11,795 bases of DNA from the IMG/VR virus record IMGVR_UViG_2728369560_000006, positions 1 through 11,795 of that record; one strand, written 5' to 3'. Positions 2,915 through 6,955 of the stretch are shown piece after piece. Origin of the DNA: a virus. Taxonomy: Duplodnaviria; Heunggongvirae; Uroviricota; Caudoviricetes. The notes below the pieces were generated by a model. That model ran no database searches and was not told the DNA's origin. It saw nothing but the letters and a program-made list of their open reading frames with translations. Positions within the stretch are counted from its first letter, which is position 1; each line of letters begins with the position of its first letter. A program made the translations under genes and the position numbers.

Positions 2915-3304
2915 TCAGGCGGCTGCACCCGCCGGTTTCTCGTACTTACTGATAGTGATCTCGACCTTCCCTTCCGGGATAACCGGTCCCCACTCCACCA
3001 GCATTCTTTTCACCTGACTGTCGTCTTCCCACACACCCGCGTGGGTCAGGGCGTCAAACAGCGCCTTGTTATAGTTGTCCAGATCGCGGATCCGGTTATC
3101 CGGAGGAAACAACACGATCTCCACTGAAGCAGGTGCCGACGTTGGTTTTGGCAGACGACGTAACTGCTCAACTATTGCTGCACACGCCGCGCTCTGGAAT
3201 TTGCGCCCCGCCGCGCTTATCAGGCTCTTACCAGCAAACGCCCCTTTGTTGGGGTGTCGCCAGTACGTGTTCACGCTGGGCGGAAAAGGCAGGATCAGCT
3301 TCAT
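2915..3304 (-). CDS. rusA: crossover junction endodeoxyribonuclease RusA (Holliday junction resolvase)
   Basis: 129 aa. Motifs LPFPPSVNTYWRH, RDLDNYNKALFDALT and GVWEDDSQV match the RusA family, including the catalytic Asp cluster. Start overlaps the stop of the upstream gene (3301-3304). Confidence 0.85.
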   Translation of the reverse strand: MKLILPFPPSVNTYWRHPNKGAFAGKSLISAAGRKFQSAACAAIVEQLRRLPKPTSAPASVEIVLFPPDNRIRDLDNYNKALFDALTHAGVWEDDSQVKRMLVEWGPVIPEGKVEITISKYEKPAGAAA

Positions 3305-3627
3305 ACTTTCAGGCCCCTCTCATGTAACCAGTGGGCTGCACGCAGCCTGGCGTTTTCCTCACCGGCAAGCAGTGAGCGGATAATCCCGACCGCCTCGCTG
3401 TCGTCGTCCTTCACCGCGGTATGAAGCGTTATCCCCCGTGCCACGCCACGCTTTATCGTGATGACGCCTTTTTTCTCCAGTGCGCGAAGATGCTCCACCG
3501 CTGCATTCACTGAACGGTATCCCAGCATGGTAGCCACCTCCTGATTGGTTGGCGGGAAGCCACGTTCTTTCTGATAAGAAATCAGCATATCCAGCACCTG
3601 CTGCTGGCATTGAGTTAATGTCGTCAT
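3301..3627 (-). CDS. LexA N-terminal DNA-binding-domain protein (winged-helix only; no S24 peptidase domain)
   Basis: 108 aa. LTQCQQQVLDMLISYQKERGFPPTNQEVATMLGYRSVNAAVEHLRALEKKGVITIKRGVARGITL aligns closely by eye with the E. coli LexA N-terminal domain (LTARQQEVFDLI...[36 protein letters not shown]...SRGIRL). The protein ends about 40 aa later with no Ala-Gly/Ser/Lys peptidase region. Confidence 0.7.
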   Translation of the reverse strand: MTTLTQCQQQVLDMLISYQKERGFPPTNQEVATMLGYRSVNAAVEHLRALEKKGVITIKRGVARGITLHTAVKDDDSEAVGIIRSLLAGEENARLRAAHWLHERGLKV

Positions 3628-4310
3628 GCCGCCATCTCCCTGACCAGTTTTTCCGCCTGCTGGCGAACCTGCGCCAGAAACGCCTCACCACATGTCTCAA
3701 GTTCATCGCGCCCGATGTAGCTGATTGCCGGTCCCTTCCAGGTCTTATCGAAAACAGCAATAGCACCAGCGAAGAACGCTCCTGTCGGCACCTGCTTCTC
3801 GTCTTTCGGGATAAACCAGACAGGCAGTTCAAAACCAATACGCCCGCGAATAAAAGCAATATGGTCTGCATCTTCCGGCCACCACACTTCGCTGGTGGCA
3901 GCTTTGATCAGGAAAACATAGCGCCCGCCTTTATCACGCATGGCACTGGCATGCTTCATGATGTAACGCATGCCGGTGATGTATTGCCCCTCATGCTGAC
4001 TGGCGCGGCTGTATGGGGGATTACCAAAGGCAGCACCTTTAAGCTCCGCAAGACGTTCTGACCAGTCATGCGCCAGCGCGTTGTCTTCCGCCGTGTAATA
4101 CGCGGCACATTTGGCGTTATCACCGTCAGTGAACAGATCCAGAACAAACGGACCAAACAGGGTGTTAATTCCCCAGAAAATGTTATCCGGCGTGCGCCAC
4201 TGATCTCCCACTTCCTTCAGTTCATGGGCTGGTTTATTCCGCAGTTCCACCAGCGCCTGGCAATATTTATTACTCATTAAGCCCCCACGTAATTCCCTGA
4301 CAGATACCAC
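3624..4310 (-). CDS. phage DNA N6-adenine methyltransferase (Dam family, orphan)
   Basis: Contains the (D/N)PPY motif IV (FGNPPYS) typical of N6-adenine/N4-cytosine methyltransferases, with no adjacent restriction gene. Start is uncertain: the ORF track gives 4310, but an internal ATG at about 4277 (MSNKYCQ...) forms a TAATG overlap with the upstream gene's stop and may be the true start. Confidence 0.7.
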   Translation of the reverse strand: MVSVRELRGGLMSNKYCQALVELRNKPAHELKEVGDQWRTPDNIFWGINTLFGPFVLDLFTDGDNAKCAAYYTAEDNALAHDWSERLAELKGAAFGNPPYSRASQHEGQYITGMRYIMKHASAMRDKGGRYVFLIKAATSEVWWPEDADHIAFIRGRIGFELPVWFIPKDEKQVPTGAFFAGAIAVFDKTWKGPAISYIGRDELETCGEAFLAQVRQQAEKLVREMAA

Positions 4311-4771
4311 TCTTCACCCGATGCAGCGCGCTTGCTGCTTTTCCGTAAGCACCGCTCACGACGCGCCAGAAAATTGTTTCGTTCTGGCTGGGAGTGGCTT
4401 TCACGGAATGCCGCCATCCACACGGTTGCAGCACGACGGTATAAGCCCCTTGACTCCAGTTCTTCCGCCTGGCGGGTCAGGCACAAAATCACCCGGGGAT
4501 CGTTAGTGCCGACATAGAAATTGCGCGCAGGTCTGGTTTCACGAACTGGTTGTGGTTCCGGCTCCTGCGCTCTCTCAGTCAGGCGCGGGAAATGTCTGCG
4601 TGTATCCCCTTCATAACGGTGAGCCACACGCCCACTCTGACGTAACTTGCTTGCTGACTGCAGAACGCGCTGCCGTGAGTAACCAGCAAAAGCATCCGCA
4701 ATGTCTCCGGAAGTACACCCCGGATGGGCTTCAATGAATTTCTGAACGTCATTTAACAGACTCATGATCAC
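4277..4771 (-). CDS. PerC-family-like putative transcriptional regulator
   Basis: 164 aa. C-terminal region carries GLYRRAATVWMAAF ... ARRERCLRK, resembling the GLWRRAA..W hallmark of PerC/Pch regulators (from memory). Start overlaps the O-like gene stop (4768-4771). Confidence 0.45.
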   Translation of the reverse strand: MIMSLLNDVQKFIEAHPGCTSGDIADAFAGYSRQRVLQSASKLRQSGRVAHRYEGDTRRHFPRLTERAQEPEPQPVRETRPARNFYVGTNDPRVILCLTRQAEELESRGLYRRAATVWMAAFRESHSQPERNNFLARRERCLRKSSKRAASGEEWYLSGNYVGA

Positions 4772-5709
4772 CCCCTGAATCCTGCCGGGATCTGGCTGTA
4801 GTCCACGTTGTCGTAACTGGATTTGAAGTACGGGTCTTCGCGTTTTTCGGTGTACGTGCTTACGGACGGCGATAAGCGCAGGGAAAGCTCATCCCATTTT
4901 TCCCGCAGCTTCGACGGGCTGAGCACGTTACGGCACCAGAACGGATCGCGGCTGACGCGGCTGTACATCTCGCAGATTTGTTTGTGAGTACGACCATCCT
5001 GCACACACATCAGGCGAATTTCGTTTGCCCAGGCTGTCCAGTTCGGTTCTTTGGGACGAACCACCTCGCCGTCACATTCGGCGGCCTGCTCGTACAGGGC
5101 GATGATTTTTTTCCAGAGCCACTGTGCGCAGGTCAAATCATCCTGCGTTCCCCACTGGCGCTTTTTAGGGCTGAATACAACCGCATCAGGATGGCGAGTT
5201 AAAAAATCCTGTTCATCCGTCTGCGTGTCCGGTTGCGAAGCGTCCGGACGAGAAGTTTTTTTATCTGACGGATCATGTTTTGATTTTACTGACGGATCCC
5301 CGCCAGATTCTGACGGGTGAAAACCCGCTTTTTTGCCAGATTTCGACGCATCAAATTTTGACGGGTCAGATTTTGATGCGTCAGATTTTGACGGGTCAGA
5401 ATCTGACAGTTGAGAAAATGCCGCTGCCTGAAGCTTCGCAACGTTAAGCTGATAAACATTCGACGCATTGCGGTTACCCTGGCGACGCGCCTTACGCGTT
5501 AACCAGCCTTCTGCTTCCAGCCGTGCGATAGCCGTTCTGACGGTACTCATCCCCGCGCCAATCTGGCGGGCAATGGTTTCAATTGATGGCCAGCACACAC
5601 CTTCGTCATTACTGAAATCAGCCAGGCGGGCCATAATTGCCACGCTGGATAATTTCATGCCTGATGCAGCGCAACTATCCCATACATAGCCGGTTAATTT
5701 AGTGCTCAT
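4768..5709 (-). CDS. phage replication initiation protein (O-like: N-terminal wHTH domain, repeat-encoded linker, C-terminal domain)
   Basis: 313 aa. N-terminal HTH region (SIETIARQIGAGMSTVRTAIARLEAEGWL), low-complexity linker SDSDPSKSDASKSDPSKFDASKSG encoded by tandem 15-bp DNA repeats (lambda O-like architecture with ori inside the gene), and a C-terminal domain. SD GAGG about 6 nt upstream of the ATG. Confidence 0.7.
   Translation of the reverse strand: MSTKLTGYVWDSCAASGMKLSSVAIMARLADFSNDEGVCWPSIETIARQIGAGMSTVRTAIARLEAEGWLTRKARRQGNRNASNVYQLNVAKLQAAAFSQLSDSDPSKSDASKSDPSKFDASKSGKKAGFHPSESGGDPSVKSKHDPSDKKTSRPDASQPDTQTDEQDFLTRHPDAVVFSPKKRQWGTQDDLTCAQWLWKKIIALYEQAAECDGEVVRPKEPNWTAWANEIRLMCVQDGRTHKQICEMYSRVSRDPFWCRNVLSPSKLREKWDELSLRLSPSVSTYTEKREDPYFKSSYDNVDYSQIPAGFRG
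5281..5410. repeat. iteron array (candidate phage origin of replication inside the initiator gene)
   Basis: About 7 copies of a 15-bp unit (plus-strand consensus TCAGATTTTGACGGG). Copies at about 5336-5410 are in perfect 15-bp phase (CCAGATTTCGACGCA, TCAAATTTTGACGGG, TCAGATTTTGATGCG, TCAGATTTTGACGGG, TCAGAATCTGACAGT), with further copies at about 5282-5318. A/T-rich patches lie immediately to the left. Confidence 0.65.
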
Positions 5710-5718
5710 GACCGACCT

Positions 5719-6057
5719 CTATTTCCCTGAATTTACGACGAAACTGTTCGAGCGGGCTGAAGCACTCATGCTCATAGCCTTCGCGGAGGTAGATAACCCG
5801 TTGTGTTTCCGGCTCCCAACGAATGACTCTGACGGGCACTCCGTAGTGATCTTTGAACCAGCGGTTAACTTGTCGCAAAGGACTGTCTCCTTCTGCCGGT
5901 TGAAATCACCCACAGCCCACTCTGCAAAGCTGTGGGTTACAATTTCCCTGTCACCTGGTACATTTACTGCATAGCAATACTCCACCTTCGCTTTTCCACC
6001 CGGTACAGGAAGCGCAATCAGTTGCGAGCGACGGTAGTGTGTTGTTAAACTGTTCAT
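5719..6057 (-). CDS. hypothetical protein (small ORF between CII-like and O-like genes)
   Basis: 112 aa. Same strand as the operon, start overlaps the CII-like stop (6054-6057), SD-like GGAG upstream. Against: low-complexity C-terminus, no recognisable family, and a strong 9-bp hairpin (about 5908-5937) inside the ORF. Confidence 0.35.
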
Positions 6058-6605
6058 GCGTTAGTTTCTCCACAGTCACGACACGCCACGGCGCCCGGAG
6101 CTGCACACTCGCGGGCGTCATTACTTTCTGAAATGCAAAAAATTTTGTAGACCAGTGCTGCATGCTCCTGCAGCTTCGAAATTGAGAGGTACAGCTCGTC
6201 GTTAATTGCTGTCTTCTCATGCGGTTCCACTACACCGTCTTCAATTGCTGAACGAATCTGTTTTGAATAACTGCCGATCTGTTCAATGACTTCCAGCAGG
6301 CGCTGGTTAATATCGGCGTTGTCCACATCCTCGACGTCAGGAAGAGACACAAAGACGCCATTTGCAGACTGCGCCACAGCGTCAGCAATGAAGTGAGTTC
6401 CACCAGCACGTTGCAAAATCATTGCCCATCCCAGCGGGAAAATCTGATCGCCATCGGCACGAAGGCGGTTAAATAATGCGTTCTCTGTTACATCCAGCCA
6501 GTCAGCAGCTTCAGCGTACCCCCCCGGCAACGCTGCGATAGTTTTTCTGACAGCTTTCACGTACCACTCAGGCTGTTTTTCTACTTTCCAGTGATGCTTA
6601 CCCAC
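6054..6605 (-). CDS. CII-like / YdaT-family phage regulatory protein
   Basis: 183 aa, directly downstream of the cro-like gene with overlapping start/stop, the canonical cII position. Size and position fit the roughly 180-aa CII(CP76)/YdaT-type proteins of enterobacterial prophages; family call is positional plus weak memory. Confidence 0.5.
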
Positions 6606-6858
6606 GGTTCACCTCCTGTTCCTGTGGTTTAAACCCATTCTGGTTTTGGCTAGATTGAAAACGTGCCGGATAAAGAATCTGCATTTCGCTGACTTCACCC
6701 TTAAAAAAATTGGCTAAACGTTCTGCAAGCTCGATAGATGGAATCTGCTCCAGCCTCTCAATACGACTCAACGTCGCTGGATTGACTTGAACACCCGCAG
6801 CAACATGCTGCAAAGTGAAACCATGCGCCTTACGCACATTTCGTAATGGTGATTGCAT
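6598..6858 (-). CDS. cro: Cro-like HTH (XRE family) transcriptional regulator
   Basis: 86 aa with a clear HTH (FTLQHVAAGVQVNPATLSRIERLE). Divergent from the CI-type repressor gene across a 97-bp operator region. Strong SD (GGAGGTC) upstream of the ATG. Confidence 0.8.
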   Translation of the reverse strand: MQSPLRNVRKAHGFTLQHVAAGVQVNPATLSRIERLEQIPSIELAERLANFFKGEVSEMQILYPARFQSSQNQNGFKPQEQEVNRG

Positions 6859-6955
6859 ATGACCTCCAAATATTGCGCGTTATGCATGTTATTTCACGCA
6901 ATTATTTTGCGCAAGTTGATTTGCTTATCACGCAATAAAGAAATGTAATAAACGC
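6859..6955. promoter_or_regulatory. immunity region OR: divergent pR/pRM promoters with repeated TTGC-N7-GCAA operator sites
   Basis: Repeated half-sites TTGCG/CGCAA: TTGCGCGTTATGCAT (about 6873-6887), ACGCAATTATTTTGCGCAA (about 6895-6915), TTGCTTATCACGCAA (about 6921-6935). Candidate pRM -35 TTGCTT / -10 TGTAAT ending about 7 nt before the cI ATG (leaderless-type cI mRNA, as in lambda). Candidate pR on the minus strand within the same interval. Confidence 0.55.

Follow-up and report, generated by a model that had tools for sequence, protein, structure and literature searches.

An operator for the host SOS repressor inside the repressor gene of a phage, accompanied by a LexA look-alike that is immune to DNA damage, raises the question of whether the induction decision of this phage may be wired into the SOS response by a route that has not been described. 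The question matters because SOS-inducing antibiotics cause prophage induction and, as a consequence, Shiga-toxin release and gene transfer. The window analysed here, a stretch of 11,795 nucleotides from a Caudoviricetes record, represents the early region of an SfII/mEp460-type lambdoid prophage. Over positions 6500–8000 the window is matched at 100% by a prophage of ~40 kb in E. coli 90-1. With moderate confidence, at slightly better than even, we favour as the best explanation overall that the operator belongs to a LexA-operated, umuDC-like promoter nested in cI, and that the accompanying protein would be an uncleavable LexA-like regulator.

The LexA look-alike is a protein of 108 aa encoded at 3301–3627 on the minus strand. 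The preliminary description had taken it to be the DNA-binding domain of LexA without the peptidase domain, aligning with host LexA nearly residue for residue, and both statements hold. The Pfam profile LexA_DNA_bind (PF01726) covers residues 1–65 with all of its 65 positions (E = 2.9e-19), Peptidase_S24 (PF00717) has no Pfam match in the protein, which stops at residue 108, and phmmer aligns residues 2–69 with residues 2–69 of E. coli LexA without gaps and with ~51% identity. In addition, an AF2 model superimposes on the LexA N-terminal domain of the 3JSO DNA complex with 0.8 Å over 67 residues (51% identity), whereas the LexA equivalog model TIGR00498 (NCBIfam) yields 70.8 bits at a cut-off of 110.95 and is matched at model positions 1–91 only. 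The winged helix-turn-helix (residues 1–69) is followed by two family-specific C-terminal helices (74–87 and 93–103).

The protein belongs to PHROG 362 (phrog_362, E = 1.4e-59, positions 1–106 of 106), an uncharacterised phage family of ~106 aa annotated as 'transcriptional repressor'. Full-length matches fall into about a dozen clusters at 50% identity, and the C-terminal two-helix module is kept down to 42% identity. In the lytic early operon the gene has Dam on its upstream and RusA on its downstream side, shares ATGA overlaps with both and is translationally coupled inside the PR operon. Over LexA residues 2–69 the protein resembles the N-terminal cleavage fragment of LexA (1–84), and a single 4-residue gap extends the alignment to an 'AGE' in the Ala84-Gly85 region of LexA. 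Unlike this fragment, however, it is gene-encoded and stable and carries ~20 more residues, which form the second helix. Since the catalytic domain is missing, the protein is not cleavable by the LexA mechanism. Binding of operators by the isolated N-terminal domain of LexA is weak, and dimerisation of the 108-aa protein through its C-terminal helices is no more than conjecture.

Four of the five DNA-contact residues of LexA (S39, N41, A42 and E45; list in PMC3091678) are retained in the 108-aa family over the range of 42–100% identity, while the fifth, E44, is replaced by Val in the protein studied here and varies across the family. Every examined phage that carries the gene also has at least one strong canonical LexA box. 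A role as an SOS-insensitive LexA mimic is plausible as judged from these sequence features. In the literature searched, neither a description nor ChIP or EMSA results were found for the cI-internal box, nor a description of the enterobacterial 108-aa protein.

The strongest competitor, although we regard it as doubtful, is that the 108-aa protein acts as an activator or as a regulator with shifted specificity and is functionally unlinked to the box in cI. Its model would be gp6 of the Bacillus thuringiensis tectivirus GIL01, likewise a phage-encoded truncated LexA homologue consisting of the DNA-binding domain only, which activates P3 by way of a site that overlaps the -35 element (PMC6182141). 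Both proteins are ~44–51% identical to the N-terminal domain of host LexA, the Val in place of E44 and the variability of this position would suit a changed specificity, and the conserved two-helix module could contact RNA polymerase or another partner. On the other hand, the C-terminal extension of gp6 consists of only 14 residues, with which the wing is completed, and the promoter that gp6 activates is a late one, whereas the 108-aa protein has the two-helix module, is encoded in a lambdoid nin-region operon and comes from another host clade with another type of box. Judged from sequence, the domain architecture appears to be the only feature shared with gp6-like activators. Against this reading, the other four contact residues persist to 42% identity in hosts that all use CTGT-N8-ACAG, at least one strong canonical box accompanies the gene in every phage examined, and no alternative conserved palindrome was identified, albeit without a systematic search.

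The second element lies in the cI repressor gene (6956–7648, plus strand), which is preceded by the divergent cro-cI control region (OR/PR/PRM, 6859–6955, with a TTGC-N7-GCAA operator-like repeat at 6921). The repressor of 230 aa consists of an HTH_3 domain (residues 7–62), a variable linker and a UmuD-like Peptidase_S24 domain (104–218). An excellent SOS box had been reported within this gene, and it is indeed found exactly at 7165–7184, where TACTGTATATAAAAACAGTA occupies the linker codons (N70)T71-V-Y-K-N-S76(N77). The sequence is the same as that of the E. coli umuDC and sbmC operators (MG1655 sequence compared; umuD and sbmC boxes are given in PMC3009722, Table 4). Within the window it is the only exact CTGT-N8-ACAG and the only site with three or fewer mismatches to the 20-nt LexA consensus, a match reached in 0 of 200 dinucleotide-preserving shuffles. 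In the whole ~40-kb E. coli 90-1 prophage, too, it is the only strong LexA box. Its score of 26.3 bits falls near the top of the range of authentic LexA sites (12.8–26.4 bits), the matrix having been made from known operator sequences and serving for ranking only; the identity with the umuD/sbmC boxes was verified independently of this matrix. A lead to e14/cohE proved irrelevant, as the e14 induction papers deal with weak LexA boxes only and with a different repressor.

Conservation of the site at the nucleotide level in related cI genes had been set beforehand as a test, and the box was present in every related cI examined. It is found at gene nt 210 in all 126 unique cI nucleotide sequences (65–100% amino acid identity), which come from Escherichia, Salmonella, Citrobacter, Klebsiella, Kosakonia, Lonsdalea and other genera and give scores of 18.8–28.1 bits. 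A Cronobacter cI with 50% identity has the box as well; relatives at 43% identity or less have none. The entropy of the third codon positions in codons 70–76 is 0.04–0.05 bits, compared with an average of 1.15 over the gene. At the amino acid level codons 70, 73, 74 and 75 vary, and T71, V72 and S76 are invariant. Only 7 of the 107 conserved amino acid columns show a frozen codon; three of these are in the box, and a fourth, F63, lies inside the -35-like hexamer described below. The linker around the box is hypervariable and contains indels downstream, with none between this hexamer and the box. As the third codon positions of the box are frozen in spite of the hypervariable surroundings, selection must act on the DNA, and the box is under strong DNA-level purifying selection across the cI family. 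It provides a clean example of a transcription-factor site under selection in coding sequence. The two halves are not equal: the left half is better conserved than the right one, position 1 being T in 125 of the 126 sequences, while A (62) and G (63) are almost equally frequent at the mirror position 20.

What the box might control is suggested by its surroundings. A putative -35 element, TTTACC (7142–7147), lies 17 nt 5' of TACTGT (7165–7170), which is the left half of the box and would serve as the -10 element on the plus strand; the better conservation of this half-site fits such a role. The layout is close to that of umuDC, which has the identical 20-bp box: TTGATC-17 nt-TACTGT with an ATG 19 nt past the box in umuDC, and TTTACC-17 nt-TACTGT with a GTG 20 nt past the box in cI. 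A synthetic 47-bp promoter of the type TTGACA-17-TACTGT-box has been reported to be functional (PMC9074414). The hexamer TTTACN occurs in 121 of the 126 homologues, and the F63 codon is frozen at TTT; since the hexamer falls in conserved L-F-T codons, its conservation is not independent evidence. As a -35 element, TTTACC is equalled in score by only 1.8% of the hexamers in the window. TACTGT matches the -10 consensus at 3 of 6 positions, and a consensus sigma-70 scan of 6700–8000 at a threshold of 4/6+4/6 yielded no promoter; the proposal is based on the analogy to umuDC and on our own scoring. In the sequence ENT47670 the -35 element is poor, and here a TGn extended -10 and a GGGGAGG Shine-Dalgarno (SD) sequence before an in-frame GTG are found.

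Transcription from the putative promoter is predicted to start near 7177. An SD-like GAGGA (7190–7194) precedes an in-frame GTG at 7205 (alternatively 7214), and the putative nested reading frame (7205–7648, plus strand) would encode ~144–147 aa in the frame of cI. An in-frame start with an SD sequence of at most -5.5 kcal/mol is present 7–60 nt past the box in 98% of the cI sequences; at a threshold of -6.0 the proportion is 71%, compared with 0–6% in other 55-nt windows of cI. The best in-frame start is not located at one fixed column, as the codon at V87 reads GTG or TTG in 109 of the 126 sequences, the remaining 17 having GTA or GTT, and in ~57% of sequences an out-of-frame ATG uses the same SD sequence. 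The SD-like runs could also originate from the purine-rich Glu/Gly/Asp/Lys codons of the linker. An intrinsic terminator directly 3' of cI (7668–7690) would limit a nested transcript to the part for the C-terminal domain. Among 110 distinct downstream sequences of homologues, 100 have a hairpin with T-run after cI. Beyond it lies the OL/PL region with two TTGC-N7-GCAA operator-like repeats (7703–7739). Two database proteins with the size of the predicted product were rejected as separate genes: P0224 (144 aa) reflects an internal start chosen by the gene caller on an intact full cI reading frame, and P0121 (147 aa), a 'CTD-only' protein, is a contig-end artefact. That the gene caller preferred the internal start in P0224 counts in favour of translation from it.

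The predicted nested product would comprise a short arm, the Ala-Gly cleavage site and the S24 domain, a UmuD-like protein consisting of the C-terminal domain only, and as in UmuD a short N-terminal arm would precede the cleavage site of an S24-fold protein. Indeed, the best match of the cI C-terminal domain among solved structures is UmuD/UmuD', with 36% identity to E. coli UmuD over 83 aa. In contrast to umuDC, the unit proposed here is nested in frame in a phage repressor gene, its product would be the C-terminal half of the repressor, no umuC-like gene adjoins cI, and the scores for the UmuD family models are far below their cut-offs (NF007621, 32.5 bits with a cut-off of 110; HumD, 21.4 with a cut-off of 120). 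No stand-alone close relatives of the C-terminal domain were found among the best 120 matches; Omnitron and ST-29, which matched in this domain only, were discarded because they have other N-termini or a truncated reading frame, and they lack the box.

In the mechanism that we consider, the nested promoter would be held shut by host LexA in the lysogen. Destruction of LexA under the influence of RecA* would start the transcript, which would be translated from the SD sequence and one of the two GTG codons and end at the cI terminator. Its product, the UmuD-like S24/dimerisation domain of the repressor without the DNA-binding domain, would most likely form defective oligomers with full-length cI or cleave cI in trans, adding a LexA-gated feed-forward push to the RecA*-driven induction. 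The effect of the fragment may have either sign, however, and could favour or oppose induction. After induction, the 108-aa protein would be made from PR. As it keeps four of the five contact residues and is uncleavable, it would probably re-occupy LexA boxes while host LexA is gone, both in cI and at host SOS operators. The complete scheme, a gene within a gene in which the C-terminal domain is a self-directed antirepressor or trans-protease and the phage LexA mimic re-closes the cI box and host SOS operators after induction, so that this two-step SOS rewiring sets the induction thresholds of SfII, mEp460 and Stx2-converting phages, is put forward tentatively and we hold it to be possible rather than probable.

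The need for such a second SOS input is not evident, since the repressor has an intact autocleavage apparatus. The predicted cleavage site Ala99-Gly100 (7250–7255) and the catalytic residues Ser144 (7385–7387) and Lys181 (7496–7498) are present and conserved, and together with the HTH they give cI the architecture of a lambda-type autocleaving repressor, for which cleavage is predicted from the sequence. Known systems provide analogies for parts of the scheme. In the Tn5 inhibitor Inh and the phiC31 repressor isoforms, an internal promoter or start gives rise to a product that lacks the N-terminus but has the oligomerisation domain in common with the full-length protein, which it antagonises, and Tum of coliphage 186 represents a LexA-controlled antirepressor module. 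We know of no case in which a LexA-operated SOS promoter serves as an internal promoter in a cI-type repressor. In the Salmonella Gifsy phages (GfoA/GftA; PMC3121763) there is likewise a canonical box through which host LexA gates a would-be repressor inactivator. There, however, a repressor that cannot be cleaved is combined with an antirepressor encoded by a small gene of its own, which lies beside dinI in a distant module, whereas here the repressor is of the S24 autocleaving type and the putative antagonist would be its own C-terminal domain expressed within the gene. A Gifsy-type arrangement also disagrees with the full S24 domain of cI and with the lack of any other strong LexA box in the prophage.

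An explanation without promoter function is that LexA bound within cI acts as a roadblock and attenuates RNA polymerase coming from PRM. Expression of cI would then be trimmed in the lysogen and increase upon cleavage of LexA, which could set a threshold or aid recovery. A single transcription unit runs across the site, which lies ~210 nt inside this unit and equals the umuDC operator in strength. As 20 fixed bases are most easily accommodated in the interdomain linker, the position of the site would be accounted for, and the negative result of the stringent promoter scan would be expected. Nevertheless, we consider this unlikely, as it leaves unexplained the fixed 17-nt spacing to the -35-like hexamer, the frozen F63 codon, the stronger left half-site, the enrichment of in-frame SD sequences and starts, the extended -10 of ENT47670 and the near-umuDC layout. 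Moreover, more cI upon SOS induction would run counter to the RecA*-dependent cleavage of cI itself.

The preliminary description had instead suggested that the box and the 108-aa protein act together. If they form a dedicated pair, the box would mainly be the target of the non-cleavable phage mimic, which would shut off cI after induction. All 13 complete phage records with a box-type cI indeed have the LexA-like gene, as do all 15 viral loci with at least 90% cI identity; the prophage contains no other strong box, and the recognition helix of the protein is largely conserved. This pairing does not extend to the wider sample, however. Of the 109 cI loci with the box, only 40 (27 of 80 once dereplicated) had a LexA-NTD-like gene within at least 8 kb upstream in an HMM search, leaving 69 (53 of 80) that lack it within this distance. 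In a Lonsdalea prophage that has the box, the early operon is fully visible and contains no PF01726 gene. Conversely, the gene occurs in 50 phage records, of which 37 are outside the 13 that match most of the box-type cI region, and in the three such phages checked, SfV, SfIV and cdtI, there is no box in or near cI. The co-occurrence in E. coli is accounted for by linkage, since the two elements lie ~3.3 kb apart in one module. The dedicated pair is thus quite improbable: each element occurs without the other, the two can interact where both are present, and the box presumably serves host LexA first.

A very improbable variant would have the box control a minus-strand SOS promoter directed toward cro and PR, which would interfere with PRM and read into the lytic operon. 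The box is palindromic, so that its right half reads TACTGT on the minus strand in the window, and such a promoter would put the lytic genes under direct LexA control. It was rejected on the counts of its elements: the minus-strand -10 TACTGT is found in 59 of 126 homologues only, most of the others having CACTGT or CACTGG, and a usable -35 element is present in 1.6% of the sequences, this side being the hypervariable, indel-bearing linker. Hardly credible, finally, is a site without LexA function (a chance match, a gene-fusion relic, an mRNA hairpin or a protein motif TVYKNS), for although the palindrome could fold a 5–6 bp RNA stem and T71, V72 and S76 are invariant as amino acids, none of the shuffled sequences was as good, synonymous positions are frozen while adjacent amino acids change, the bases that do not vary (TACTGTAT...CAGT) coincide with the LexA consensus, also in the would-be loop, variation occurs in the AT-rich centre of the box, and the site is kept over ~50% protein divergence.

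If the favoured explanation, a LexA-operated nested promoter together with an uncleavable LexA-like protein, is true, a second, LexA-level input in the repressor gene would revise the view of induction thresholds and of spontaneous induction, and the non-cleavable mimic could dampen the host SOS response, with effects on mutagenesis, competitor prophages and colicins. Both elements are widespread. Of 5426 complete E. coli genomes, 1040 contain the box-type cI and 2233 (41%) the LexA-like gene. A box-type cI is also the repressor of SfII, a serotype-converting phage of Shigella, and of several Stx2a- and Stx2k-converting phages, among them Stx2a_1447, WGPS2, phiSTEC1575-Stx2k and 1720a-02.

The window is the early and immunity region of a lambdoid prophage of the SfII/CPS-53 type; over the stretch compared (6500-8000), it shares 100% identity with E. 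coli strain 90-1 and 99.5% with Shigella phage SfII. The PR operon runs on the minus strand and comprises cro (6598-6858), cII/YmfL (6054-6605), an O-like replication gene (4768-5709), PerC (4277-4771), Dam (3624-4310), the gene for a 108-aa protein (3301-3627), RusA (2915-3304), KilA-N (2098-2895), DUF968 (1101-2096) and Q (718-1086). The repressor gene cI (6956-7648) lies on the plus strand and is followed there by a terminator (7668-7690) and, further downstream of OL/PL-like repeats, by the integrase (10514-11698). Inverted repeats TTGC-N7-GCAA on both sides of cI (6921-6935, 7703-7717 and 7725-7739) probably serve as the operators of cI (OR and OL) and have no relation to the LexA box.

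The excellent SOS box that the preliminary description had placed inside cI was confirmed. The sequence TACTGTATATAAAAACAGTA is located exactly at 7165-7184 and matches the umuD and sbmC operators base for base (PMC3009722, Table 4; MG1655 sequence), and none of 200 shuffles contained a match with three or fewer mismatches from the LexA consensus. It is the sole box in the window, and the whole E. coli 90-1 prophage has no second strong one. The box sits in the interdomain linker of cI, where it is read as codons (AA)T ACT GTA TAT AAA AAC AGT A(AT).

cI homologues were collected from one-genome-per-species contigs and IMG/VR (241 loci, 126 distinct nucleotide sequences, 65-100% amino-acid identity) and scored with a LexA matrix built from known operator sites. 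All 126 distinct sequences carry a high-scoring box at gene nt 210 (18.8-28.1 bits, 32 variants), in which CTGTAT...CAGT is invariant and the variable positions are central, while the flanking linker sequence is hypervariable, with indels on the downstream side. Mean entropy at third codon positions is 0.04-0.05 bits in the box versus 1.15 gene-wide, by far the lowest in the gene, and these positions are frozen even though the residues encoded by codons 70, 73, 74 and 75 vary; T71, V72 and S76 are three of the seven frozen codons among 107 conserved amino-acid columns. The site is thus conserved in related cI genes at the nucleotide level, as the earlier reading demanded, and this pattern reflects DNA-level selection for a LexA site.

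The box is also present in the cI genes of Lonsdalea and of a Cronobacter phage (50% identity), and absent from relatives with 43% identity or less (Turner, BTP1, HK022, PHL101, PSTCR7lys and an Stx2d phage). Citrobacter phage Omnitron (L253:2174-2938), in which a cI-like C-terminal domain (50% identity) is joined to a different N-terminal DNA-binding region, is likewise box-less, and its fusion shows that domains have been shuffled at the linker. Beyond the box and F63, the frozen codons are G4 (6965-6967, GGA in 126/126), F173 (7472-7474, TTT in 125/126) and D95 (7238-7240, GAT in 126/126), the last coming before another in-frame GTG that is frequent and has GAGGT as its Shine-Dalgarno (SD) sequence. 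An 'AA' at 7157-7158 (gene nt 202-203), 7-8 nt before the box, is kept in 126/126 and 121/126 sequences, respectively, though the amino acid of its codon varies (K/N/I).

The arrangement within cI mirrors that of the umuDC promoter. A putative -35 (7142-7147) reads TTTACC in cI and TTGATC in umuDC, both are separated by 17 nt from TACTGT (7165-7170 in cI), and the start codon past the box is a GTG at 20 nt (7205) in cI, with the ribosome-binding site GAGGA, and an ATG at 19 nt in umuDC. A published synthetic 47-bp promoter with TTGACA, 17 nt and a TACTGT-containing box is SOS-inducible (PMC9074414). TTTACN is found in 121 of the 126 homologues, with the F63 codon frozen as TTT, the interval to the box is free of indels, and only 1.8% of all hexamers in the window reach the -35 score of TTTACC. 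The left half-site is better conserved than its mirror image, as expected if TACTGT also serves as a plus-strand -10: position 1 of the box is T in 125/126 sequences, whereas at its mirror position 20 they are split between A (62) and G (63). The -35, spacing and half-site data favour such a nested plus-strand promoter, with the qualification that the -35 falls within conserved codons, that TACTGT is a weak -10 and that a stringent promoter scan of 6700-8000 detected no promoter. A minus-strand promoter was rejected, neither its -10 nor its -35 being conserved. The most distant box-bearing cI, that of Cronobacter phage ENT47670 (L255:1501-2190; 50% identity), has TVDTYS in place of TVYKNS and no TTTACC -35; TGA directly before TACTGT forms a TGn extended -10, and the SD GGGGAGG lies 7 nt before an in-frame GTG.

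With an SD threshold of -5.5 kcal/mol or lower, 98% of sequences have an in-frame start with an SD 7-60 nt past the box; with -6.0 kcal/mol or lower, 71% do, versus 0-6% in other gene windows, although such SD-like runs may reflect linker composition; no single start codon is fixed across homologues. At L246:3001-3435 a metagenome gene caller placed a 144-aa S24-only protein with the internal GTG as its start codon, although the upstream 229-aa cI ORF is intact, suggesting that the internal ribosome-binding site there outscores the true one. Of 110 distinct sequences downstream of cI, 100 have a terminator after the gene, which would leave the C-terminal domain as the sole product of a nested promoter. 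This domain holds the Ala99-Gly100 site, Ser144 and Lys181; its closest solved-structure match is UmuD/UmuD' (36% identity to E. coli UmuD), and it misses the UmuD and HumD family cut-offs.

The proposed mechanism is a second SOS input. In the lysogen, host LexA would keep the nested promoter closed, and during SOS the cI C-terminal domain would be produced free of the DNA-binding domain. S24 repressors dimerise via the C-terminal domain, so mixed, DNA-binding-defective oligomers with cI would be expected; alternatively, the fragment might act on cI in trans. RecA*-dependent cleavage would thereby be joined by an input gated by LexA, and an operator as strong as that of umuDC would make it a late, high-damage one. 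A decoy protecting cI, with the opposite sign of effect, is possible. The main rival is that LexA bound within cI is a roadblock to PRM transcription. An antisense promoter, an RNA hairpin, a protein motif or chance each match the conservation pattern poorly. After induction, the uncleavable 108-aa protein would be made from PR and could re-occupy the cI box and host SOS operators. Judging from the literature available here, this conserved, umuDC-like SOS operator inside a repressor gene has apparently not been described before, and it adds a new variant to LexA-controlled prophage switching.

The 108-aa protein had correctly been recognized as a LexA DNA-binding domain without peptidase. It matches the whole 65-position Pfam LexA_DNA_bind profile (E=2.9e-19), a Pfam search found no S24 domain in it, and its residues 2-69 align without gaps to E. 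coli LexA 2-69. The AlphaFold model (pLDDT 80) superposes at 0.8 A on the N-terminal domain (NTD) in the LexA-DNA crystal structure (51% identity). At 70.8 bits it falls below the cut-off of the NCBIfam LexA equivalog model (110.95), so that it counts as a LexA-domain protein and not as LexA itself. Two helices after the wing (74-87, 93-103) are kept in phage homologues (about 105-116 aa) down to 42% identity. LexA contacts DNA through S39, N41, A42, E44 and E45 (PMC3091678); across the family, S39, N41 and A42 are invariant and E45 is E or D, while position 44 is variable and Val in this protein. The family (PHROG 362) is annotated yet uncharacterised, no experimental work on the protein was found in the literature available here, and among characterised proteins GIL01 gp6, a LexA-DBD-only activator, comes closest. 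ATGA junctions overlap the gene with both Dam and RusA, which places it among the lytic early genes that are silent in a lysogen. Of 5426 complete E. coli genomes, 2233 carry it, as do 50 phage records (among them SfII, SfV, SfIV, mEp460, cdtI and Stx2c/Stx2a phages), and its place in the nin region is always the same.

The coupling proposed between this protein and the box is supported in part. Both features occur together in 13/13 complete phage records with a box-type cI and in 15/15 loci with at least 90% cI identity. However, a LexA-NTD-like gene within at least 8 kb upstream was found at only 40 of 109 box-bearing loci (27/80 after dereplication), 37 of the 50 phage records that carry the 108-aa gene fall outside those matching box-type cI, and the cI genes of SfV, SfIV and cdtI, the three checked, all with the 108-aa gene, are box-less. 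Box and gene are separable modules, linked in E. coli; the observation thus stands, and its interpretation holds in part.

Within the LexA-like gene, CACTGAACGGTATCCCAGCA (3508-3527) fits CTG-N10-CAG, scores below 10 bits and is probably meaningless. In SfV (L091:34170), mEp460 (L092:41021), cdtI (L094:2920) and Stx2c_PV98-693 (L095:3712), all four of which carry the LexA-NTD-like gene, the 'DNA methylase'/orf48 gene immediately following Q contains the strong LexA box TACTGTAAAAATAAACAGTG (22.6 bits) 8 nt in from its 5' end, a further SOS box embedded in coding sequence. In SfIV (L093:7101-7120), the strong box TACTGTTCATAAATACAGTA (23.4 bits) sits between KilA-N and the LexA-like gene, in a gap with no annotation, and adjoins an apparent RusA remnant. 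Finally, mEp460 has two tandem LexA boxes (L092:23255 and 23283) upstream of a DinI-like gene beside the integrase, a classical SOS-regulated moron similar to the Gifsy dinI locus.
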